From Nitrospinota bacterium (GTDB taxonomy: Bacteria > Nitrospinota > Nitrospinia > SZUA-224), in assembly GCA_016212345.1 (NCBI GenBank), contig JACRGM010000034.1, forward strand, positions 1 to 15,175: DNA of 15,175 nt. The letters are read 5' to 3'. Below, in pieces: positions 626-15,175 of the stretch (its first letter is position 1; each line of letters begins with the position of its first letter). Under the pieces are notes generated by a model, which was given only the letters and a program-made list of their open reading frames with translations, was not told where the DNA came from and searched no databases. The position numbers and the translations under genes were made by a program.

Positions 626-1228
626 ATGCCTTTATCAGAAGATATGAAAGATATTGTCGAGGATATGATTTCTTCTTATGATATGAGGATCCAGAGTATC
701 GGGGCCATCTTTGATACTACTTACCAACTCCTCGAAGGTCTTCAGGATTCCTTTCTTGATACAAAACAAGAACAAGAAAGGATTAATGCAGAATTACGGG
801 AGAATCTTGCCAAAAACGGGTCTTTAAGGAGGAAGGATTTTGACAATATGATGCAGGGCATCCTTTTAACACAGGAGGAAAGGGAAAGGGAGGTAAGGAA
901 TCTGTTAAAGACCTACCTTAATGAACAAAAGAAGATGATACATGCCTTAAGAGAGAATCTGGCTAAGATCAAAGATGCTATTGCCAAAGGTGATATTCAA
1001 AGGGTCAAGGATTTCCGTGGCATGATTATTGAAAAAATATTTGCCAAACCAGAAGAAAGAAAGGAAGATCTTACCTCTAATCTAAAGAGGTTTCAAAGAG
1101 AACAAAAGGCCTTGTCAAAAAGACTTAAACGACTTTTAGCAAAAGGGGATGAACTTCAGATAAAGGATATCAAATTAATGCTCAAGGAATTCAAAAACAA
1201 ACATAATAAAGAGCGAATAGCTCACTAG
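626..1228 (+). CDS. Charged alpha-helical repeat protein, paralog 1 (N-terminal EDMISSYDMR motif; internal repeats LRENLAK...KDF..M). Candidate GvpC-like gas-vesicle shell-associated protein
   Basis: The tool ORF starts at GTG 599 inside module C. ATG at 626 with AGAGGAAGG RBS is preferred. Position right after gvpA, K/E/R-rich repeat structure, and paralogy with the next ORF. Not recognisably cyanobacterial GvpC. Confidence 0.75.
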   Translation: MPLSEDMKDIVEDMISSYDMRIQSIGAIFDTTYQLLEGLQDSFLDTKQEQERINAELRENLAKNGSLRRKDFDNMMQGILLTQEEREREVRNLLKTYLNEQKKMIHALRENLAKIKDAIAKGDIQRVKDFRGMIIEKIFAKPEERKEDLTSNLKRFQREQKALSKRLKRLLAKGDELQIKDIKLMLKEFKNKHNKERIAH

Positions 1229-1242
1229 GGAAGGAGGTAAAT

Positions 1243-2031
1243 ATGGGAATGGGAATAGCTACTGATATTAAAAGGCTTGGTGAAGACATTATTACTTCTT
1301 ATGATATGCGAGTAAAGGCCATGGGAGAGCGAGTAAAGGTGGTAGGAGAATTAGTAAGAGATACTCACAATATGGTTAAAGGGTTTCAGGCAAGGGATAA
1401 AGAGAGAAGGGATAATCTCAAGGCATATCTTACAAAGTCCGAAGAAGATAGACTTAAGGATTTCAAGATAACGATGGATGATCTTGTAAGGTGTAAAGAA
1501 GATAGAGGTAAGGATTTGAAAATAATGATAGCCGAGATTAAAAGATTTATAGTGGAGACGAGGCAGGCGAATGCAAAATTAATGAAACAGAGTAGAGAAG
1601 ATAGAAATAAGGAAGTAGCAGAACTCTTAGAAAGATTTGCAAAGGATCATGAGGCCATGGCATCTGAACTTGAGAAAGGCCTTGAGAAAGGAGAGAGAGA
1701 GAGACTTAGAGACTTCGGGTCAATGATGAGTAGTATTCAAAAATCTATTCAGGATGTAATTAACGATACCAAGGGATTAATTGAGGGAGTTCGGGAAAAA
1801 CTGAGAAATAAAAAATTCCTTGCCTTCTTAGAGGATTTCAAGACCGAAAGGGAAAAGATGGCTGCTAATTGGCAGAAACTCTCTGAGGAGATGTATAAGA
1901 GGAGAGGCGGAAAGATATCGAGGGTAAAGGTAGAAGCTGATGAAGAGGTAAAGACCGTTGAAGAGGTAGTAGAAGCAAGGTCAAACAAAAAGCTAAAGCT
2001 AAACAAAAAAAGAGGAGTGAAGAAGATATGA
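1243..2031 (+). CDS. Charged repeat protein, paralog 2 (GEDIITSYDMR motif; RLKDF/RLRDF repeats; Lys-rich C-terminal tail)
   Basis: GGAAGGAGGT RBS 6 nt upstream. N-terminus and the KDF..M repeats align with the previous ORF. Confidence 0.75.
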   Translation: MGMGIATDIKRLGEDIITSYDMRVKAMGERVKVVGELVRDTHNMVKGFQARDKERRDNLKAYLTKSEEDRLKDFKITMDDLVRCKEDRGKDLKIMIAEIKRFIVETRQANAKLMKQSREDRNKEVAELLERFAKDHEAMASELEKGLEKGERERLRDFGSMMSSIQKSIQDVINDTKGLIEGVREKLRNKKFLAFLEDFKTEREKMAANWQKLSEEMYKRRGGKISRVKVEADEEVKTVEEVVEARSNKKLKLNKKRGVKKI

Positions 2032-2999: not shown

Positions 3000-3341
3000 A
3001 TGAGAGGAATTAATAACCTTAAAGGGCTCCATGCATTAAGGACTATGGATAGCACAAAGAGACGTTCCATACCGAGGATTCAAACCTCGATTTATTTAGA
3101 TATGTATATGTTGAATACAGAGAAGACAAGACTCTTAAGAGAAGACGAAAGACTAGGGGCAAGGAGATATGCTATTAGAAAGCGACTAGAAGAAATAGAG
3201 CAAGAGATGAATAAGTTACAAGAGGCTGAGACCGATGAGAGCACAGTTAAGGCCAGGACAAACAGAATCCTTTCAAAACATCCTTACATTCAGAAAGATG
3301 GGGGTAAAAAAGAGTGGAAGAAGATACCTTTAAATTATTAG
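3000..3341 (+). CDS. Hypothetical basic coiled-coil protein (113 aa) inside the gvp operon
   Basis: AGGAGG RBS 7 nt upstream. K/R/E-rich, no recognisable family. Position between gvpN and gvpJ. Confidence 0.6.
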   Translation: MRGINNLKGLHALRTMDSTKRRSIPRIQTSIYLDMYMLNTEKTRLLREDERLGARRYAIRKRLEEIEQEMNKLQEAETDESTVKARTNRILSKHPYIQKDGGKKEWKKIPLNY

Positions 3342-3372: not shown

Positions 3373-3672
3373 ATGGCTGATCAAATAGTGCATGCGGTTC
3401 AGACAACAAACCTTGCGGATATCTTAGAGAGGGTCTTAGAGAAAGGTATAGTTATTGCTGGAGATATTAAGATTCAGATCGCTGATGTAGATCTACTTAA
3501 TATTAAGATCCGTCTTTTAATTTCCTCTGTGGATAAGGCTATGGAGATGGGGATAAATTGGTGGCAAAGCGATTCTTATCTTTCTTCAGAAAGAGAAGAG
3601 AGAGAATTAGAGAAAGAAAATAAAACCTTAAAGAAGAGATTAAGGCAGTTAGAGGCAAAGACAAAAATTTAA
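3373..3672 (+). CDS. gvpJ: Gas vesicle protein GvpJ (GvpA/J/M family)
   Basis: LADILERVLEKGIVIAGDIKIQIADVDLLNIKIRLLISSVDKAMEMGINWW matches the GvpJ pattern, including the WW. Charged C-terminal tail. Confidence 0.9.
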   Translation: MADQIVHAVQTTNLADILERVLEKGIVIAGDIKIQIADVDLLNIKIRLLISSVDKAMEMGINWWQSDSYLSSEREERELEKENKTLKKRLRQLEAKTKI

Positions 3673-3739: not shown

Positions 3740-3750
3740 GCTGGGTGGCT

Positions 3751-3831
3751 GGGTGGCATGGACAAACTTGTTTGTCCGTGCTTGTTTGTCCGTGCCTTTG
3801 TTGGAGGCTGAAAGGCTATTTTCAGAGGAAG
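3751..3831 (+). promoter_or_regulatory. Module B copy 2 (palindrome 3760-3777) with an internal duplication of the half-site TTGTTTGTCCGTGC (3768-3781 and 3782-3795), followed by the GGCTATTTTCAGAGGAA leader
   Basis: Seen directly. Immediately upstream of the Hsp20/gvpH-like ATG at 3836. Confidence 0.5.
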
Positions 3832-3835
3832 AAAT

Positions 3836-4384
3836 ATGGCAAAAGAAAAGAAAAAAAAGGAAGAAGAGAATTTAGATATTGATTTTGGTATAGGAAAGAT
3901 CAGTTTAGGAGGGTTATTTAAAGGTATAGAGAAATTAGTTGACCTGGCTGCAGATCTAAAAGAGGCTGGTGGTGAGATCAAGAAAGAAGGTGAAATAGAT
4001 CTAGGTCATCTTAAAGATGGTATGAAAGGGGTGTTTGGCTTTTCTATAAAGACAAGTATAGGGGGAAGGCCAATAGTTGAGTCATTTGGCAATATTAAGA
4101 AGAGCCCTAAAGGGCCTACAGTCAAGGAGGAGAGAGAGCCTATTACAGATATCTTTGACGAAAAAGAGGAGGTTCGTGTCTACGCTGAGATGCCAGGCGT
4201 GAATGAAGGGGATATAAGATTAGATCTAAAGGGGGATATATTAGATATCTCAGCCCAAAGCGGAGAGAGAAAGTATCATAAAGAGGTTTTACTTCCAGAA
4301 AAGGTAAATCCTGAGACCCTTACATCGAGTTATAAAAATGGTGTATTAGAGGTAAAGATGAAGAAACCCTCATGCCCATCATAG
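3836..4384 (+). CDS. Small heat-shock (Hsp20/alpha-crystallin domain) protein in the GvpH position, with a Gly/Lys-rich N-terminal region
   Basis: C-terminal VRVYAEMPGVNEGDIRLDLKGDILDISAQ...KYHKEVLLPEKVNPETLTSSYKNGVLEVKMKK fits the alpha-crystallin domain pattern (PGV..EDI, I.LP, NGVL.V). Confidence 0.85.
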   Translation: MAKEKKKKEEENLDIDFGIGKISLGGLFKGIEKLVDLAADLKEAGGEIKKEGEIDLGHLKDGMKGVFGFSIKTSIGGRPIVESFGNIKKSPKGPTVKEEREPITDIFDEKEEVRVYAEMPGVNEGDIRLDLKGDILDISAQSGERKYHKEVLLPEKVNPETLTSSYKNGVLEVKMKKPSCPS

Positions 4385-4407
4385 TCAGCACAAAGAGGGA
4401 TGAAAAT

Positions 4408-4473
4408 GGGTGGCATGGACAAACTTGTTTGTCCGTGTCTTTGTGGTAGGGTGAAAGGCTATTTTCTGAGGAA
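4408..4473 (+). promoter_or_regulatory. Module B copy 3 (palindrome 4417-4434) plus GGCTATTTTCTGAGGAA leader abutting the 4474 ATG. A partial module A (4371-4407) precedes it and overlaps the Hsp20 gene 3' end
   Basis: Seen directly. Confidence 0.5.
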
Positions 4474-5412
4474 ATGGGATTAACAGGATTAAGAGATGAT
4501 CCGCTAAAGCTGATATTATTTGGTGGCAAAGGGGGGGTAGGAAAGACAACCTGTGCCTCAAGTACAGCCCTTTACTGTTTATCATTGGATTTTAAGACAC
4601 TAATCTTTTCAACAGACCCAGCACATTCACTTTCTGATAGTTTGGGCCAGAAGATCGGCGATGAAATAAAAGAGGTACAAGGGATAAAAAATTTAAGTGC
4701 CCTTGAAATAAACTCAAAAAAGGCCTTTTCTAGATTTAAGATACAATATGAAGACCAAATAAGAAAGATATTAGATACCTCTACCTATTTAGATCAGGAA
4801 GATATCAACTCTATCTTTGCCTTACCCATCCCTGGTATAGATGAGATAATGGGATTTAAGACCATGGTTGACCTCATTGAGGAGGCAAGGTTTGACAAAT
4901 TCATTGGGGATACAGCACCTACGGGCCATGCCTTAAGACTTTTAACCTTACCTGAATTATTAGATGACTGGATTAAGGTGATGGCAAAGTTGAGGTGGAA
5001 ATATAGGTATATGGTAGAAAGATTTTCTGGGGGATATAAACCTGATGAAGGTGATGACTTTCTATTAAGTATGAAAAGGAGTGTAAAGAGGATTGAAGGT
5101 CTACTCCGGGATGATCAAAGGTGTGAATTTATCGTGGTAACAGTACCGGAGGATATGGCGATCTTAGAGACAGAGAGATTAATAGAAACATTAGGTAGAT
5201 ATGGGATAAAGGTAAGGCAGTTAGTGGTAAATAATGTATTAGAGTCAAATGGTTGTCCATTTTGTAGAGAAAGAAGAAAAGAACAGGAGAGATATATAGA
5301 TCGAATAAGGACAAGATTCAGTAATTTAAGGCTGACAATTACCTTTTTACAGCCTCGAGAGGTTAAAGGGGTAGAGGCCTTGAATAATTTTAAGGATATT
5401 TTATTTCAATAA
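4474..5412 (+). CDS. ArsA/Get3-family (anion-transporting / tail-anchored-protein targeting type) P-loop ATPase
   Basis: Deviant Walker [11 protein letters not shown], ArsA/Get3 signature [13 protein letters not shown], and a CPFC (CxxC) motif near the C-terminus as in Get3 zinc-binding dimers. Confidence 0.88.
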
Positions 5413-7586
5413 TGAAAAAAGAGAACACAATCTTAACCCTAAGAGTCAAGGAGGCCTTATCAAAGGATGTAGGTAGGGCAGTTGCAAGGATTGACCCTGA
5501 AGATATGAAGACCCTGGGATTAGAGGTTGGTGAGATTATAGAGATTGAAGGTAAAAGGAAGACCCCTGCTAAGGTGATGCCCTGTTATGCTGAAGATAGA
5601 GGGAAAGGGATTATCCAAATGGATGGGATATCCAGAGAAAATTCACAGGTTGGACTGGACGAAAAGGTAACGATCCATAGAATCGGTTATAAAGTCGCAA
5701 AGAAGATTATACTCTCTCCTTTGACTGTATCCAGTTTATCTACAAGAGACAAAGACACTAAATATATCGGCTCACTTATAGAGGGATTGCCTGTAACTAT
5801 TGGAGATAGGGTAAGGGCTACACTCTTTGGGTCAAGGTCTTGTGACTTTAAGGTACAGGATACTCTTCCTCCTGATAGTGTAGTCTTGATAAGCCCAACT
5901 ACCTTAATAGAGATGAAGACAAAAGGGTTAGAGGAGACTATACAAGCCAAGGTTTCATACGAAGATATCGGTGGACTTACCCCACAGATCCAAAGGATTA
6001 GGGAAACGATTGAACTACCATTAAGATATCCTCAAGTATTTGAGAGATTAGGGATCGATGCGCCCAAAGGTGTCTTTCTTTATGGACCACCTGGGACAGG
6101 AAAGACCTTGATTGCTCGGGCAGTGGCTAATGAAACAGATGCCTATTTTACCAGTATAAGTGGGCCTGAGATTATGGGTAAATTCTACGGTGAGAGCGAG
6201 GGACGACTACGTTCGATCTTTCAGGAGGCTCAGGCAAATGCCCCTGCTATTATATTTTTAGATGAGATTGAGGCTATTGCCCCAAAGAGGGAAGATATGG
6301 GTGCTGAAAAACAGGTTGAGCGCAGAGTAGTAGCCCAACTCTTGGCATTAATGGATGGATTAGAGTCCAGGGGTAATGTTATTGTCGTCGCTGCAACCAA
6401 CCTCCCTAATATAGTAGATCCAGCCCTGAGGAGGCCAGGCCGATTTGATAGAGAGATCGCTATCCCTATCCCTGACAAAAATGGGAGATTAGAGATATTA
6501 CAGATTCACACAAGGGGTATGCCTCTATCAGAGGATGTTAGCTTAGGAAAATTAGCCGAAATTACCCATGGATTTGTAGGTGCGGATTTAGAGGCACTGG
6601 CAAGGGAATCTGCGATGTCTGCTTTAAGAAAGATATTACCGAAGATCGACTTTGAGATGGCTGATATCCCTTATGAGACACTAATGAAGATAGAGGTGAC
6701 AATGGATAATTTCTTGGAGGCAATGAAAGAGGTTGAGCCGTCAGCAATACGGGAGGTCTTTGTTGAGGTCCCAGATGTCAAATGGGAAGATGTGGGGGGC
6801 TTAGAGGATATAAAAGAAGAGCTGAAAGAGGCGATAGAGTGGCCACTTAAGCATTCAGAGATCTTTAAGATGGCAAATACAAATCCACCTAAAGGTATAC
6901 TCCTTTATGGGGCCCCAGGGACAGGGAAGACATTCTTGGCCAAGGCAGTAGCTAATGAAAGTGGGGTAAACTTTATTTCGGTAAAAGGCCCTTCTCTTAT
7001 CTCAAAATATGTGGGAGAAAGTGAAAAGGCAATCCGTGAGGTATTTAAGACAGCAAAACATGCCTCACCTAGTATCTTATTTTTTGATGAAATAGATAGT
7101 CTTGTCCCTCGAAGGGGTTCAAGTAGCACAGACGCACATGTAACAGAGAGGGTGATAAGTCAATTCTTAACAGAGATGGATGGGATTGAGGAACTTAAAG
7201 GGGTAGTAGTCTTGGCCGCTACCAATAGATTGGATTTAGTCGATCCAGCATTATTGAGAAGTGGGAGATTTGACCTTTTGCTTGAGTTACATAAACCAGA
7301 TGATAAAACCAGACAAGAGATATTCAAGATACATACTAAAGATAAACCGCTTGCTAAGGATGTCAATTTAATAGACTTAGCAAAAGAGACTGAAGGTTGG
7401 GTGGGGTCGGATATTGAGTTTATCTGCCGAAGGGCCTCTATGTTGGCGATAAGGGAATTCATCAACCAGAGAGGGAAGGGCACAAGTCAAGGCACAGGGC
7501 TTAAGATTTCAAATAGGCATTTTGAAGAGGCGATTAAGTTGATCCACAACCAAAAAGGAGATCCTCATACCGAATACCGACCTTAG
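5412..7586 (+). CDS. CDC48/VAT/p97-type double-AAA unfoldase (N domain + D1 + D2)
   Basis: N-domain [33 protein letters not shown]1 has [17 protein letters not shown] and IIFLDEIE. D2 has [17 protein letters not shown] and [11 protein letters not shown] overlaps the upstream TAA (taATG). Last codons lie inside module A copy 3. Confidence 0.93.
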
Positions 7587-7619
7587 TCGGCACAAAGGAG
7601 GATGAAAATTGGATCACAC
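7563..7619 (+). repeat. Module A copy 3: CCTCATACCGAATACCGACCTTAGTCGGCACAAAGGAGGATGAAAATTGGATCACAC
   Basis: Overlaps the last about 8 codons and stop of the CDC48 gene. Confidence 0.5.
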
Positions 7620-7705
7620 CCCCACCCAGCCTCCCCCCTCAAGGGGATTGAGGGGGTATTTTTATTAGATATTAGGATTTAAAATTTATATAAAACTGGG
7701 GTGGC
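7620..7705. repeat. C-run/G-run structured element: hairpin CCCCCTCAA-GGGGA-TTGAGGGGG (7637-7659) nested between CCCCCACCC (7619-7629) and TGGGGTGG (7698-7705)
   Basis: Seen directly. Includes TTTATATAAA at 7684-7693. Confidence 0.4.
7684..7693 (+). promoter_or_regulatory. TTTATATAAA TATA-box-like element, 14 nt upstream of the module B palindrome
   Basis: Identical to 3730-3739. The flanking sequence gatttaaaatTTATATAAAactgggg parallels copy 2. Confidence 0.35.
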
Positions 7706-7738
7706 ATGGACAAACTTGTTTGTCCGTGCTTTTGTGGA
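7698..7738 (+). promoter_or_regulatory. Module B copy 4 (palindrome 7707-7724)
   Basis: The tool ORF start at 7706 (MDKLVCPC...) is simply the ATGGACAAACTTG of the repeat. Confidence 0.5.
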
Positions 7739-7759
7739 ATGGGTGTAGGGATCTACATT

Positions 7760-8860
7760 ATGGGTAAGCAAGGAAAATATATCTATGGAATTATAAATTC
7801 TAATGGAGAAGGGTCTTTCATGCCTTATAGAGCCACTGACTGTGAGGAGGTTTATCCTGTCAGAGATATGGAATCTGGCCAGGAATCGAGGATCTCTAAC
7901 ATGGTTTATACTATCCCTTATCGGGATATCTCAGCAGTAGTAAGTGACTCAGATATAGTTGATTATACCTATATGCATAGAGATGCCCTAGCAAGACTTT
8001 TAGTTAAACATCAAAAGGTTAATGAAAGGATTATGGGTTTAGGTCTTGCAATCATCCCTATGAGATTAGGGACATTTGCCGTTGATGAAACTGAGGTTAG
8101 GGATGTCTTAAATAAGGGATATAGTCTTATAAAAGAGATAGCTGAAGAGGTACAGGACAAGATAGAGATCGATATTGTTGCCACATGGGCTGATTTCCCT
8201 TCAGTACTTAAAGAAGTTGGAGAGGAGAAAGAGATTAGGGAATTTAAAGAAAGGGTATTAGATAGTCCTAATGGTGTATCTATAGACGATCAGATGAGGG
8301 TAGGGGTTATGGTTAAAGAGGCACTAGATGAAAAGAGAAAGAGATATGCCGAAGGGATACAAAATACCCTAAACCCTATTTATCAGGATAGTAAGATCCA
8401 TGAACTTATGGATGATAAGATGGTTATTAATGCAGCCTTTCTTATAGAAAGATCTAAACAAAGGTATCTTTATGGAAAGATAGAAGGGCTAAATGTTGAA
8501 TTTAGAGAGAGATTAAATTTTAGGTGTGTAGGTCCACTTCCTACCTATAGTTTTTATACACTTGAGGTAAAAAAGATGCGATTTGAGGAGATAGATTGGG
8601 CAAGGAAGAGATTTGGCCTAAATTACGCTACCAATAAAGATGAGATTAAGAAGACCTATTATCGCTTAGCCTCTTATCTTCACCCTGATAAAAATCCGAA
8701 TCTCCCTAATATAGAGAGGGAATTCGATGATGTAACTAAGGCCTATAAGATACTCATTGACTATTGCCTATCCTGCGAAAGGTCAGGTCAAGGAGTAGGT
8801 TATTCCTTCAATAAGGAGGAATTTAATAAGAATGTAATATTAGTTAAGATAAGGGAGTGA
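7760..8860 (+). CDS. GvpF/GvpL-family protein fused to a C-terminal J-domain (DnaJ-like, HPD at 8681-8689)
   Basis: GvpF/L hallmarks MVINAAFLIERSKQ and GPLPTYSFY. C-terminal EIKKTYYRLASYLHPDKNPNLPNIEREFDDVTKAYKIL is a J-domain with the HPD motif. Preferred start is ATG 7760 (MGKQGKYIYGIINS, matching the M..YIYG N-termini of the other GvpF paralogs). The start is uncertain; the tool start at 7706 lies in the repeat. Confidence 0.82.
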   Translation: MGKQGKYIYGIINSNGEGSFMPYRATDCEEVYPVRDMESGQESRISNMVYTIPYRDISAVVSDSDIVDYTYMHRDALARLLVKHQKVNERIMGLGLAIIPMRLGTFAVDETEVRDVLNKGYSLIKEIAEEVQDKIEIDIVATWADFPSVLKEVGEEKEIREFKERVLDSPNGVSIDDQMRVGVMVKEALDEKRKRYAEGIQNTLNPIYQDSKIHELMDDKMVINAAFLIERSKQRYLYGKIEGLNVEFRERLNFRCVGPLPTYSFYTLEVKKMRFEEIDWARKRFGLNYATNKDEIKKTYYRLASYLHPDKNPNLPNIEREFDDVTKAYKILIDYCLSCERSGQGVGYSFNKEEFNKNVILVKIRE

Positions 8861-8862
8861 TT

Positions 8863-9636
8863 ATGGAAAAGGAAGGAAGGTATATATATTGCATAATAGC
8901 TGATAGAGAACCTAAGACCTTTGGTAGACTGGGGATTGGTGGTAGGCAAGATGAATTGTATACAATCTGCCTTGACGATATCGCAATGGTAGTGAGCAAT
9001 TCTCCAATAATAGAATATTCAGTATCAAGAGAAAATCTACTTGCCCATGAAAGGGCAATTGAGGAGGTAATGAAGGAATATACTGTTTTACCAGTCCGGT
9101 TTGGTACAATTGTTGAGAATGAAGAGAAGATTAAAAAGATTTCAGAAAAGGAATATGACAGATTTAAGGGGTTACTTAATAAGTTTGAAGGCAAAAGAGA
9201 ACTAGGGCTGAAGGCAATATTTAAAGAGGATGCGATTTTTATGGATATCTTAGAGAGATATGAAGAGATAAGGGTCTTAAAAGAGAAGATTGCGAAGTTG
9301 CCTTCCAATGTCTCATATTATCAATCTATAGATATAGGAAGGTTGGTGGAGCAGGCATTAGAAAAGGAAAAGGGAAGATGTAAAGAAGAGATATGGGATA
9401 TCTTAATGCCCATGGCAGAGGATATAAAGATTAATCCCACCTACGGTGAAAGGATGATCATAAATGCTGCATTTTTAGTAAATAAAGATAAAGAAGGAGA
9501 GTTTGACCAGAATGTTCAGAAACTTGATGCAAGATATGGTGATAAGATCAAATTTAAATATATAGGGACAGTCCCGCCATTTAATTTTGTTAATTTGGTA
9601 ATTAATACAGAGGAAATCCTTATGCCGATAAAGTAG
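8863..9636 (+). CDS. GvpF/GvpL-family gas vesicle protein, paralog 2
   Basis: RYIYCII N-terminus, MIINAAFLVNKDKEGEFD, and GTVPPFNFVNL. ATG 8863 with AAGGGAG RBS (the tool GTG 8857 is less likely). Overlaps the upstream stop. Confidence 0.88.
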   Translation: MEKEGRYIYCIIADREPKTFGRLGIGGRQDELYTICLDDIAMVVSNSPIIEYSVSRENLLAHERAIEEVMKEYTVLPVRFGTIVENEEKIKKISEKEYDRFKGLLNKFEGKRELGLKAIFKEDAIFMDILERYEEIRVLKEKIAKLPSNVSYYQSIDIGRLVEQALEKEKGRCKEEIWDILMPMAEDIKINPTYGERMIINAAFLVNKDKEGEFDQNVQKLDARYGDKIKFKYIGTVPPFNFVNLVINTEEILMPIK

Positions 9637-9662
9637 GCACAAAGGAGCATGAAAATACACAC
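9621..9662 (+). repeat. Module A copy 4 (partial): tATGCCGATAAAGTAGGCACAAAGGAGCATGAAAATACACAC, overlapping the 3' end of the GvpF gene
   Basis: Aligns with 531-560 and 7585-7619. Confidence 0.4.
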
Positions 9663-9795: not shown

Positions 9796-9830
9796 TTGAA
9801 AAAAGGTATTTTCAGAGGAACCCTCAGCTC

Positions 9831-9880
9831 CCTCTCCCCTTTGGGGAGAGGGTAAGGGTGAGGGGGTATTTTCAGAGGAA
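9831..9880 (+). promoter_or_regulatory. Module C copy 2 (hairpin + G-run tract + GGTATTTTCAGAGGAA leader) immediately upstream of gvpG. An additional GGTATTTTCAGAGGAA lies at 9805-9820
   Basis: Near-identical to 571-620. Confidence 0.5.
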
Positions 9881-10130: not shown

Positions 10131-10394
10131 ATGATAGAAAATATAGAGGAGGTCAGAGATGTGGTTACTGAGTTTTTAAAGAGGACCCTTAAAGTAGAGG
10201 ATGTAAAGGTGATTAAGGCTAGAAAGGTTGAGGATGGCTGGGAGACCGAGGTAGAGGCATATGAGGAGAGTTCCTTTATAAAGTCCCTTGGCCTTCCTAC
10301 AAGGGTACAAGATAAGAATATCTATGCTGTTAAATTAAATAGCAACATAGTTGAATCCTATGAGCGCAAGGAATCATCAAAGACAACCAAATGA
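10131..10394 (+). CDS. gvpO: GvpO-like gas vesicle protein (short, 87 aa)
   Basis: VEDGWETEVEAYEESSFIKSLGLPTRVQDKNIYAVKL...VESYER parallels the GvpO C-terminal core (DGW..VVEVVE, PDTQD, YEVTLD, Y.R) as I recall it. GGAGGAGGGG RBS. Confidence 0.7.
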   Translation: MIENIEEVRDVVTEFLKRTLKVEDVKVIKARKVEDGWETEVEAYEESSFIKSLGLPTRVQDKNIYAVKLNSNIVESYERKESSKTTK

Positions 10395-12495: not shown

Positions 12496-13185
12496 ATGAA
12501 GAGACTGATTTATGTCCCCATTATACATTCGAGTACAGATCTTGGCTCTATAGCAAAGGATGTAAGTAAGATAGGTATAACAGACCTAGGTAAAGAGCTC
12601 TGGGAAAGACATATAAAGACAGTTGAAGGCTTTTGGGATGTTATATCACATTATTTTGATTCTGTAGATGTATCTGGGGTAAAGATATACCAGGATGGAA
12701 TGGTAGCAGAGGGAGAAGTGGGGGAGAAGATAGTTGAAGAAGGGGTAAAATCAGGAAGCAAAAATTATGAGTTAGTCTCAAATCTCCTTAAAAGAGGGGC
12801 TCATTTAGTTAAGACAGAGGATTTTAATCTTGTTAAGGAGGAGCGCGATAGGTTACTTGCCATAATCCGGTCCCGATCTATTACTCATAGGTTGATTGCA
12901 TTTATAAAATATAAGCTAATCAAAAATAGGCTCTTAGATAAAAGGGATAATTTTATTGCCAAAAGGATAGAGGAGACCTTAAATCCCAGCGAAAGAGGTA
13001 TCCTTTTTATTGGCGCCTATCACAATATAAAGAAGAGGCTTCCAAAAGATATCCATATTAAAGAGATAAAGGATTCAGATAAGATAAAAGAATATCAAAG
13101 ATTACTCCCTTTTTATAATAGAAAAAGAGAACGTTTTGAGGAACTAGGTAGATATCTGCTATCAGAGATTAACGAGCCCATTTAA
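12496..13185 (+). CDS. Hypothetical 229-aa protein, last gene of the gvp operon (start 2 nt after the gvpK stop)
   Basis: Long ORF tightly coupled to gvpK, with codon usage like its neighbours. No family recognised. Confidence 0.65.
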   Translation: MKRLIYVPIIHSSTDLGSIAKDVSKIGITDLGKELWERHIKTVEGFWDVISHYFDSVDVSGVKIYQDGMVAEGEVGEKIVEEGVKSGSKNYELVSNLLKRGAHLVKTEDFNLVKEERDRLLAIIRSRSITHRLIAFIKYKLIKNRLLDKRDNFIAKRIEETLNPSERGILFIGAYHNIKKRLPKDIHIKEIKDSDKIKEYQRLLPFYNRKRERFEELGRYLLSEINEPI

Positions 13186-13235: not shown

Positions 13236-13448
13236 TCATATAGCAATTTTTTCTTCCGCATATCCCATTCCTACTGCAGCAAGCGCGTCTTTACGGTTGA
13301 ATTCAAGGGCCTCTTTCAGGGTAACCCGAAGGTTTTCCATTAACTCTTCATGAGTACGTTCTTGACAGTTCACCCCTGGAATTTCCTCTATCCATCCAAT
13401 CCACCACTCTCCCTCTTGCTTTACTACTGCGGTATATTCTGTATTCAT
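13236..13448 (-). CDS. HicB-like / UPF0150-family small protein (type II antitoxin-like), with no adjacent HicA
   Basis: EYTAVVKQEGEWWIGWIEEIPGVNCQERTHEELMENLRVTLKEALEF matches the UPF0150/HicB N-terminal fold pattern (YTAVIEKDGDWYVAYVPELPGC..QG.T.EEA..NL.EAI). AAGGGGG RBS. Confidence 0.7.
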   Translation of the reverse strand: MNTEYTAVVKQEGEWWIGWIEEIPGVNCQERTHEELMENLRVTLKEALEFNRKDALAAVGMGYAEEKIAI

Positions 13449-13513: not shown

Positions 13514-14743
13514 TTATCTTGAGGAAATGTCCAAAATCTGTGAAAAGTGGTATAAAAAATGAATATCTGTATCGTTCATTTTGATTGTGTCAAAGATATC
13601 ATCATTGAATATAAAGGCATCTTTAGGGTGATATTTTTCTATAAAACTAAGAAGTGATTTTCCAATTACAGGTTTAGATAAGGTAGATTTTACCTCCACA
13701 GCTTTTTTATTATTGATAATAAAATCTACTTCTGCCTTTGACTTTGTCCTCCAGTAGTTTAAGGCAATATCCTTTTTGATCAGCTCTGTAAAGATGAAAT
13801 TTTCATATAAAACACCCTTATCCTGTCTCGAATCCAATCCTTTAAAATCACCAATTACAGTATTTCTTAATCCTGTATCATAAAAATAAACCTTTGGATT
13901 TTTAACAAGTTCTGTCCTCCTATTTGTAAAAAATGGCCTTAACAATTGGATAATATATGTCTTTTCTAGGAGGTTTAAATATTTTTTAAGAGACGGAAAG
14001 CCCTGTTGTGTAGTAGTTGAGAGCTCCTGATAAGAAATAACACTTCCAATCTGGAGTGACAATGCCTTAATAAGACTAAGTACCTTATAATCATCTGTTA
14101 ACCCGAGAATATCCCTTACATCTTTTAAAAGATAGATGTTTAAAATATTTTTTAAGACCTCCTCTCTTTCCTCATAATCATTTGAAATTACTACCCGAGG
14201 ATAACCCCCATAAACGATAAACCCTTCTAATAAGGAATGGAATTTCTCAATTAACACACCATCTAACTTCTTTTCTTTGCCAGTCTCCTTATAATAATGA
14301 TAAAGATTGGCGTCCTTATAACTTAGGTATTCCTGAAAAGTAAGTGGATATAAAGTAAAAGAAAAGATCCTTCCTACTAAATATTTTACTGTGCTTACAG
14401 TTAACTCAAGGACTGAAGAGCCTGAAATAAAGATCTTTTTATCTTTAACTGTATCATAGATAAATTTTAAAGACTGACCTCCATTTCTGGCATATTGAAA
14501 CTCATCAATAAAGATGTATTTGTAAGGATTAATATAAAGTTCAATGAAGGAGTTAATATCTCTGTTAAATAAGGCCCTTATCTGTGCATCTTCCAGGGTA
14601 ATAAATGTTGAGTTTTCAATATCTTTCTGAATATGCTTCAGAAGTGTTGTCTTTCCTACCTGTCGGGCTCCCACAACGGCTATGATTTCTGGAGTATAAA
14701 GGTATTTCTTTATCTTTTTTTCTAAATCCCTTTGGATATACAT
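13514..14743 (-). CDS. COG1373-type AAA ATPase (AAA_14 + DUF4143-like)
   Basis: Walker A IIAVVGARQVGKTTLLKHI near the N-terminus and FIDEFQY Walker B. Preferred start is MYIQRDLEKKIKK at 14743 (AAGGA RBS) rather than the tool start at 14803. Confidence 0.82.
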   Translation of the reverse strand: MYIQRDLEKKIKKYLYTPEIIAVVGARQVGKTTLLKHIQKDIENSTFITLEDAQIRALFNRDINSFIELYINPYKYIFIDEFQYARNGGQSLKFIYDTVKDKKIFISGSSVLELTVSTVKYLVGRIFSFTLYPLTFQEYLSYKDANLYHYYKETGKEKKLDGVLIEKFHSLLEGFIVYGGYPRVVISNDYEEREEVLKNILNIYLLKDVRDILGLTDDYKVLSLIKALSLQIGSVISYQELSTTTQQGFPSLKKYLNLLEKTYIIQLLRPFFTNRRTELVKNPKVYFYDTGLRNTVIGDFKGLDSRQDKGVLYENFIFTELIKKDIALNYWRTKSKAEVDFIINNKKAVEVKSTLSKPVIGKSLLSFIEKYHPKDAFIFNDDIFDTIKMNDTDIHFLYHFSQILDISSR

Positions 14744-15175
14744 AAATATCCTTACTAAAATATAATATATTTTAATAATAGTAGGGATATTATGATCTGT
14801 CAAGGGTTATAATACCCTGTCTATAACTCCGACATAAGATTAGCGAAAAAAATTAGGTCAACAGTAATTTAGAGGTCTCGGAAATTCTACAACCATTAGA
14901 ACGGTATCGGCAGACTTTATTTATTCCTCAAGCTTTCCTTCCAAATCTTTTTTCTCAAATTCCTCTCCTATTTCAGATAGATAATAGATAGGCAAAAAAT
15001 ACCTACCCGATGATAGAATTTCCTACCATCTTTTCACTATTGAATTAATACCTTTATCATAAATAGGTGTATTAATATAGATTTTATTAGGATTTATAGT
15101 GTATTAAAGAGAGCATTTGAAGTGGTATAGCTATTGCAAAGACATAACAGGTATAAAAGACCTAAACATAGGTGG

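Follow-up and report, generated by a model that had tools for sequence, protein, structure and literature searches.

Two paralogous helical-repeat proteins in the gvpC position of a gas-vesicle gene cluster: a large gvpA-linked family with a possible role on the vesicle shell

The window analysed here, a whole contig of 15,175 bp (JACRGM010000034.1) from a metagenome-assembled genome (MAG) labelled 'Nitrospinae bacterium', carries a complete gas-vesicle (gvp) gene cluster on the + strand. Two adjacent genes of this cluster, here called X1 (626-1228, 200 amino acids, aa) and X2 (1243-2031, 262 aa), lie between gvpA, which encodes the major shell protein, and gvpN, which encodes an AAA+ ATPase. 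Judged by sequence, X1 and X2 fall outside the GvpC family and form part of a large, undescribed one that is linked to gvpA. The chances seem to us about evenly balanced that the two proteins together act as a two-component analogue of GvpC, non-homologous to it, that coats the outside of the GvpA shell. An outer-shell scaffold is rated the likeliest role because of the slot between gvpA and gvpN, the amphipathic repeats with a conserved face, the variable repeat number and the fast divergence of the proteins. The evidence for the family is given first, followed by the readings of its function.

Both genes were found at the coordinates predicted from the nucleotide sequence and are real open reading frames (ORFs). 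The start of X1 is most likely ATG 626 and not GTG 599, the start used in the NCBI record (209 aa), because the family alignment begins at the Met of ATG 626. X1 and X2 alike have a good ribosome-binding site. ATG 626 is preceded by AGAGGAAGG, which derives from the 3' end of the gvpA-X1 spacer, TATTTTCAGAGGAAGG, and X2, which matches NCBI protein HY999_00955 at 100% identity, has AAGGAGGT in front of it. The X1 stop and the X2 start are 14 nt apart, and the stop of X2 overlaps the start of gvpN in the tetranucleotide ATGA (2028-2031), suggesting that X2 and GvpN are translationally coupled. The original prediction placed the pair directly downstream of gvpA (35-241, 68 aa; Pfam Gas_vesicle E 4e-15, NCBIfam GvpA PRK09371 E 2e-38). 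gvpA is indeed the next gene upstream, but a structured spacer of 384 nt (242-625) lies between.

X1 and X2 are paralogues, as had been proposed: BLASTP aligns them at E 5e-12 with 25% identity, and the two family profiles match in hhalign with a probability of 99.8% (E 1.7e-30) over the N-terminus, the repeats and the C-terminal 'ER..AANW'. Both open with the predicted motif ED(M/I)I(S/T)SYDMR(I/V), which reads EDMISSYDMRI in X1 (aa 12-22; 659-691) and EDIITSYDMRV in X2 (aa 14-24; 1282-1314) (VEDMISSYDMRI and GEDIITSYDMRV); S17 and Y18 of X1 are invariant in the family. The four signatures of the KDF..M type on which the repeats had been recognised, LRRKDFDNMM, RVKDFRGMI, RLKDFKITM and RLRDFGSMM, are all present in the pair. 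The repeats themselves are real when compared with 100 shuffled sequences, but their length had been underestimated at 45-50 aa. The unit defined by an iterated repeat hidden Markov model (repeat HMM) has 57 residues, with the consensus KALKEMAAELKEDLAKGEADRLKDFKKMMKEIQKEQEERKKEVANLLKEFQKEHKEM, and recurs at a spacing of 51 or 58 aa. Where two to three repeats per protein had been predicted, X1 has three units and X2 three full units together with a degenerate N-terminal part-unit.

Unit 1 of X1 (aa 55-104; 788-937; repeat-HMM domain E 1.7e-18) contains LRRKDFDNMM, unit 2 (aa 106-161; 941-1108; E 1.5e-13) contains AKGDIQRVKDFRGMI, and unit 3, which is truncated (aa 162-193; 1109-1204; E 3.3e-5), contains AKGDELQIKDIKLML and gives a diagonal score of 43 at an offset of 52. 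The units are spaced 51-59 aa apart, and the internal diagonal scores of X1, 41-43, exceed both the mean (26+/-4) and the maximum (38) of the null from 100 shuffles. X1 has 39% charged residues and a net charge of +6. The C-terminus is about 40-70 aa shorter than in most relatives (240-270 aa) and is without the '...ERxEAAxNW' (ER..AANW) end. There is no leftover, frame-shifted X1 end, because only 14 nt separate it from X2.

The repeat units of X2 (aa 54-81, 80-139 and 138-206; 1402-1860) have repeat-HMM E values of 2.6e-6, 6.6e-9 and 1e-11, include DRLKDFKITM and ERLRDFGSMM, and give diagonal scores of 44-46. Their spacing of 66-84 aa is inflated because of an 18-aa (54 nt) tandem duplication within repeat 1 (1427-1534; 74% identity), which occupies alignment columns 163-180 and is an insertion relative to all aligned relatives (seen in 0/33). 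The duplication is a snapshot of repeat-length change in the family. The conserved C-terminal motif EREKMAANW (aa 202-210; 1846-1872) is the same motif that ends full-length relatives of X1, and beyond it X2 has a polybasic tail, RSNKKLKLNKKRGVKKI (1978-2028). With 44% charged residues, X2 has a net charge of +13.

The same architecture is seen throughout the family. Fuller relatives give diagonal repeat scores of 70-79 against a shuffle null of 29+/-4. Among 389 family proteins there are 1 to 8 repeats per protein, most often 3, and the spacing of the units is quantised at 44, 51, 58 or 65 residues, 51 and 58 being common; steps of seven mean that the helical phase is kept. The unit follows the pattern 'L..LAKGE..R.KDF..MM...ER..EV..LL..F'. 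The family can thus be recognised by an N-terminal (D/E)I(I/V)xSY(D/E)xR(I/V), 2-8 units of about 57 aa, a terminal ER..AANW and a location between gvpA and gvpN, all of which the window pair displays apart from the terminal motif of X1.

Structure prediction was in line with the long amphipathic helix repeat that had been suggested. AlphaFold2, run with the family alignments, modelled X1 as almost all helix (residues 3-64, 69-120, 124-176 and 179-199), with a predicted local distance difference test score (pLDDT) of 70.7 and a predicted template modelling score (pTM) of 0.50. In X2 (pLDDT 72.7, pTM 0.27) the predicted helices span residues 5-64, 67-115, 118-182, 189-220 and 239-257, and the protein is almost entirely helical up to residue 220. 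The helix breaks of X1, as well as the first break of X2, sit at a conserved 'AK(G/N)x' turn; for example, helix 69-120 of X1, in unit 1, starts just past the turn AKNGS, and helix 124-176 belongs to unit 2. Each unit would thus be one helix of about 50 residues. In every long helix the family-averaged hydrophobicity has a sharp periodicity of 3.58-3.66 residues, and in most of them the column conservation has the same period, which points to straight amphipathic helices with a single conserved face. A comparison of the hydrophobic period with that of Anabaena GvpC was set aside, the latter being a single sequence dominated by harmonics of its 33-residue repeat.

The family, suspected to be new, carries no established name and is large. 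When the X2 alignment served as the query of an exhaustive profile search, at least 1,360 representatives (50% identity) were found at E <= 1e-3, with lengths of 105-519 aa among the matches listed. At the same threshold, X1 has homologues in 336 clusters (90% identity), the aligned ones being 61-73% identical to it, and a word-indexed search with X2 returned 151 clusters (90% identity). All of the homologues are annotated as 'hypothetical' or bear arbitrary automatic names, and no description of the family was found in the literature searched. A tblastn search of X1 against 72,556 plasmids gave no match, and a search from the most divergent X1, that of a Marinimicrobia MAG, returned 19 metagenomic hypotheticals and zero named or cultured relatives.

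The genomic context was compared across 66 loci (L001-L066), 60 from GTDB species genomes and 6 from metagenomic contigs. More than 15 phyla are represented: Nitrospirota, Planctomycetota, Thermodesulfobacteriota, Bacteroidota, Ignavibacteria, Omnitrophota, Actinomycetota, Latescibacterota, Cloacimonadota, KSB1, Marinimicrobia, Elusimicrobiota, Spirochaetota, Armatimonadota, Desantisbacteria, Saganbacteria, Sumerlaeota and one Methanobacteriota bin (L059). The order gvpA, X1-type, X2-type, gvpN is found at every locus whose contig reaches far enough, the sole exception being L050, where X2 is undetectable. gvpA, the presumed binding partner, is the upstream neighbour at every related locus. 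X2-type copies sometimes number two or three per locus. X1 and X2 form two distinct, separately conserved orthologue lines, X1 being the more conserved and X2 the variable one. Median identities to the window proteins across the loci are 93% for GvpA, 81% for GvpN and 72% for Hsp20, compared with 54% for X1, 38% for a small ORF downstream of gvpN and 29% for X2. In a cluster that is otherwise extremely conserved, X1 and X2 thus rank with the proteins that evolve fastest; faster divergence than that of GvpA and GvpN is as expected of a peripheral protein. That GvpA, GvpN and Hsp20 are so conserved between phyla speaks for horizontal spread of the cluster, and suggests that this spread was recent or that some of the cases reflect mis-binning.

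The two lines differ at their C-termini. A winged-helix-like domain of about 57 aa (consensus from columns 497-561 of A2, the X2 family alignment) ends 166 of the 265 X2-type proteins, for example P0020, P0092 and P0038, where it replaces the polybasic tail. It resembles MarR_2 (E 1.3e-4, below threshold) and, weakly, ADAR Z-alpha (E 0.03-0.09). The remaining X2-type proteins, that of the window included, mostly have a polybasic tail, the last 25 aa carrying a median charge of +7, and neither feature was found in any X1-type protein. Such an end suggests an additional tethering or organising contact of X2, beyond plain reinforcement, or, with far lower probability, regulation. An expanded module is found in the Marinimicrobia MAG (L065, 3707-7672), in which gvpA and X1 are followed by an X2 of 415 aa that has four near-identical repeats of 44 aa, together with an E/R/K-rich stretch and a winged-helix-like end. 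Downstream of it lie an 89-aa ORF, a CxxC zinc-ribbon protein of 114 aa, a 'mini' family member of 81 aa and gvpN. Among the loci with called genes, several (L001-L005) carry a different ORF of about 108-113 aa between X2 and gvpN, and many others show a similarly sized gap at this point; the window is without this ORF.

The comparison with GvpC supports the suggestion that the slot is that of gvpC and that the occupants are unlike known GvpC repeats. The order gvpA-gvpC-gvpN was verified in the annotated records of Halobacterium pNRC100 and Nostoc sphaeroides p4, and the X1-X2 slot is conserved in the 66 loci; an isolated gvpA on a Thiodictyon plasmid was uninformative on this point. The GvpC profiles PF01304 and TIGR02641 gave no match at E <= 1 with X1, X2 or nine relatives. 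The positive control was an Anabaena GvpC sequence, validated by PF01304 (E 1.1e-75) and TIGR02641 (E 2.6e-59) and in agreement with the published repeat consensus (PMC9994262). In hhalign, the two family alignments (A1 and A2) matched Anabaena GvpC with a probability of 0.1-0.5%, Halobacterium GvpC (pNRC100) with 0.1%, and a 97-aa hypothetical protein between gvpA and gvpN of Spartinivicinus ruber with 0.1-0.5%. Other named Gvp families (GvpT/GvpP NF041669; GvpF/L, G, H, J, K and N) gave no match to X1 or X2 at E <= 1, a comparison that covers the families with a Pfam or NCBIfam profile and leaves profile-less ones, e.g., Serratia GvpX/Y/Z, outside it. Pfam and NCBIfam scans of all window ORFs detected no GvpC; a canonical gvpC is absent from the window.

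As a functional class, GvpC is defined by its place on the outer surface of purified vesicles, from which urea, SDS or water washes strip it, and by a rise in critical collapse pressure. Known GvpC consists of amphipathic helical repeats that lie along the GvpA ribs on helix alpha2 with the conserved hydrophobic face down, each 33-residue repeat spanning about four GvpA, and it raises the collapse pressure of the vesicle (PMC10185304, PMC9994262, PMC9501494). The repeat has a single conserved face (PMC9994262) and the number of repeats varies (PMC9501494). Cyanobacterial GvpC resembles X1 and X2 in the location of its gene between gvpA and gvpN, in being all-alpha with tandem amphipathic repeats and one conserved face, in its variable repeat number, and in being hydrophilic, charged and less conserved than GvpA. 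It differs in that a single protein is built from a 33-aa unit, compared with two paralogues built from a unit of about 57 aa; in composition, which is Q/A/E-rich whereas X1 and X2 are K/R/E/D-rich; and in that the X1/X2 family has a conserved N-terminal SY(D/E)xR motif that is unlike the repeats, and a C-terminal ERxxAANW motif. Haloarchaeal GvpC (Halobacterium salinarum pNRC100) shares with the pair the gvpA-gvpC-gvpN slot and less regular helical repeats in the N-terminal part. A distinct C-terminal module follows the repeats, in Halobacterium a globular, zinc-finger-containing domain (PMC9501494) and in most X2 relatives a winged-helix-like one of a different fold class; the window X2 has only the basic tail. 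Furthermore, haloarchaeal GvpC is a single acidic protein with 32-40-aa repeats, whereas X1 and X2 are net basic with a 51/58-aa spacing. Convergence on the GvpC role and divergence from GvpC beyond recognition are indistinguishable by sequence for this pair. A fit of the unit length to the GvpA lattice, in which 51 or 58 aa would correspond to about 6.2 or 7.0 subunits at 33 aa per ~4 subunits (PMC10185304), was considered too uncertain and was not used.

The original prediction had named a match to a well-characterised, unrelated family as evidence that would count against it. No significant match was found for X1 or X2 in Pfam or NCBIfam, nor in the PDB in sequence-profile searches with both family alignments (best E 0.03), nor in a fold search with the two models. 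In Pfam and NCBIfam, X1, X2 and the nine relatives gave only sub-threshold coiled-coil or apolipoprotein noise; the recurrent weak matches of family members were limited to ApoLp-III (E 5e-5 to 9e-6, 24-26 bits; PDB 1eq1 E 0.2), apolipoprotein A1/A4/E and PhaP. Set against the Pfam gathering thresholds, the best scores of any relative were 26.4/36.3 bits for ApoLp-III and 20.8/90 and 15.1/28.3 for the others. The phasin-like families, for which a check had been proposed, were thus sub-threshold in relatives (PhaP), and at a cut-off as loose as E <= 1 the window X1 and X2 hit no apolipoprotein, ApoLp-III or PhaP family. Exchangeable apolipoproteins, apolipophorin-III and phasins (PF07464, PF01442, PF09602) resemble X1 and X2 in their long amphipathic helices, with which they coat a surface. 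Unlike them, X1 and X2 occur exclusively in gas-vesicle clusters, a context other than lipid or polyhydroxyalkanoate metabolism.

If the pair is an analogue of GvpC, X1 and X2 would be minor structural proteins on the outer surface of the GvpA shell. Each would be a chain of amphipathic alpha-helices of about 50 residues (7-8 nm), linked by the conserved 'LAKG(E/D)' turn and restarting with 'R(L/V)KDFxxMM'. A stripe of conserved hydrophobic residues, along with the net positive charge, would be placed on the acidic outer face of GvpA, formed by helix alpha2 and the C-terminus. By reading of the sequences, this region of the window GvpA, which is 81% identical to a Nostoc sphaeroides GvpA, is nearly the same as in cyanobacterial GvpA. 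Helices that bridge several GvpA subunits would make the shell stiffer. X1 would be the conserved component. In X2, the variable one, the number of repeats and the length of the unit would tune strength or width, and the polybasic tail of X2 (in most relatives the winged-helix-like domain) might provide a second contact, to a polyanion or to another protein. We infer shell binding, the orientation on the shell, reinforcement and the cooperation of X1 with X2 from position and architecture. The weak, sub-threshold likeness of family members to surface-binding amphipathic proteins, the net charges of +6 and +13, and the terminator-like hairpin between gvpA and X1 also speak for this reading.

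Several points weigh against a shell coat. Profile comparison detects no homology to cyanobacterial or haloarchaeal GvpC, and the unit of 51/58 aa differs from that of GvpC (33 aa in cyanobacteria, 32-40 aa in haloarchaea). The confidence of the AlphaFold2 models is only moderate (pLDDT ~71-73; pTM 0.50 and 0.27), and the matches in the fold search are generic antiparallel coiled coils, with which a self-contained, soluble bundle is equally compatible. All carriers of the family are MAGs or single-amplified genomes of uncultivated organisms, and the role is a predicted one. Two separately conserved paralogues with a strong N-terminal motif suggest specific partners, more than plain binding to a lattice would call for. 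A role in assembly or regulation accounts equally well or better for the start-stop overlap of gvpN with X2 (ATGA) and for the winged-helix-like domain of X2 relatives.

The main rival, to which we assign a real though distinctly smaller chance, is that X1 and X2 are assembly chaperones, which would keep GvpA monomers or oligomers soluble, pass them to GvpN, GvpF/L or CDC48/Hsp20/ArsA while the vesicle nucleates or grows, and then be released. The overlap of X2 with gvpN suggests coupled synthesis, and genes for chaperones and ATPases (hsp20, arsA, cdc48 and a gvpF/L-DnaJ fusion) are unusually numerous in the cluster. Two non-redundant paralogue lines that share a conserved N-terminal motif suggest defined protein partners, and the AlphaFold2 models are compatible with a closed bundle that opens on a hydrophobic client, as in exchangeable apolipoproteins. 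In haloarchaea, suppression of unspecific GvpA aggregation has itself been reported for GvpC, GvpN and GvpO (PMC9501494). However, a variable repeat number and units quantised by the heptad are typical of lattice-matching or spacer proteins, the divergence of X1 and X2 far outpaces that of the cluster's core assembly proteins, and the slot they fill is precisely the one that the structural gene gvpC takes.

A more elaborate form of the shell scaffold, which we consider improbable as a whole, holds that X1 and X2 are a two-component outer scaffold that is independent of GvpC, has spread horizontally with the gvp cluster across anaerobic, uncultivated bacteria of more than 15 phyla, and tethers vesicles through X2. 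X1 would then be the rib-binding layer and X2 an adjustable ruler or strut, its end bound to nucleic acid or to other vesicles. If so, buoyancy organelles would be linked to the nucleoid, and acoustic reporter vesicles would gain a second, orthogonal handle. It is unlikelier still that X1 and X2 are surface organisers, which space or cluster vesicles or tether them to the nucleoid or to each other through the X2 C-terminus and do not reinforce them. The distribution of the X2 ends (winged-helix-like in 166/265, polybasic in most others, neither in X1) would suit such a role, and haloarchaeal GvpC also joins helical repeats to a C-terminal domain that binds other Gvp proteins (PMC9501494). The winged-helix assignment, however, is sub-threshold and nucleic-acid binding by the domain hypothetical, and the basic tail could simply touch the acidic GvpA C-terminus; moreover, nothing separates organising from reinforcement, and the two roles are not exclusive. 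It is very doubtful that X2, perhaps together with X1, regulates transcription of the gvp operon, like GvpE/GvpD in role though not in sequence, the repeats being a sensor or dimerisation region. Most X2 relatives have the winged-helix-like domain, and the gene lies within the operon. Yet the window X2 is without that domain and no X1 has it, amphipathic repeats in variable number that fill 200-300 residues are not the architecture of a regulator, and neither protein significantly matches any transcription-factor family in Pfam or NCBIfam.

The spacer between gvpA and X1 is highly structured, with an RNA fold z-score of -5.9 compared with shuffles. It contains a terminator-like hairpin (448-475) followed by a T-rich tail, which fits an expression of X1 and X2 lower than that of gvpA. 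Three kinds of short, hairpin-containing modules recur across the spacers of the operon: the first at 443-501, 3750-3822, 4407-4465 and 7698-7756, the second at 502-553, 4359-4410, 7554-7612 and 9609-9656, and the third at 571-621 and 9830-9880. They precede X1, hsp20, arsA, gvpF/L-DnaJ and gvpG, and most of them terminate in TATTTTCAGAGGAA, the ribosome-binding site of the next gene. Rfam gave no match anywhere on the window, these modules included. The modules may be insertions like repetitive extragenic palindromes or miniature inverted-repeat transposable elements (REP/MITE), or processing or attenuation elements that set expression ratios.

The whole cluster takes up a compact stretch of about 13 kb, and its remaining genes lie on the same strand. 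gvpN (2028-2969; TIGR02640 E 4.6e-102) is followed by the small conserved ORF (3000-3341), which encodes a 113-aa coiled-coil protein of no Pfam or NCBIfam family and occupies the slot that gvpO has in Halobacterium. Then come a gvpJ-type gene (3373-3672), hsp20 (3836-4384), an arsA-type ATPase gene (4474-5412), a gene for a CDC48-type double AAA+ ATPase (5412-7586), four gvpF/L genes, gvpG, a gvpJ/M-type gene and gvpK. That gvp clusters can include ArsA and Hsp20 had been noted before (PMC2963123, which lists Chlorobium luteolum, Geobacter uraniireducens and Polaribacter irgensii as isolates with gvp clusters of the hsp20/arsA type). In nearly all loci that reach there the small ORF and hsp20 follow gvpN, with arsA or cdc48 further on. 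The first gvpF/L gene (listed as 7706-8860) is fused to a C-terminal DnaJ (J) domain, as in loci L001, L002 and L005. Its listed ATG at 7706 falls within a repeated hairpin module and the GvpL/GvpF Pfam match runs from residue 23; the true start is probably an ATG near 7763 (MGKQGKYIYG...). Two ORFs inside or at the end of the cluster, of 87 aa (10131-10394) and 229 aa (12496-13185), belong to no Pfam family and are unassigned. Beyond the cluster, a 70-aa gene (13236-13448) and a 429-aa gene with a P-loop motif (13514-14803) lie on the - strand.

To our knowledge, GvpC is the only protein known to tune the mechanics of gas vesicles. It is also the main engineering handle for acoustic biosensors and ultrasound (PMC9501494, PMC10344784). 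The X1/X2 family is annotated only as 'hypothetical', and its strict linkage to gvpA makes it both a ready marker in metagenomes and an annotation gap for this type of cluster. If X1 and X2 do coat the shell, an unrelated, modular shell-binding system would supply new parts for the engineering of acoustic biosensors, and would explain how vesicles are reinforced in the many lineages without GvpC.

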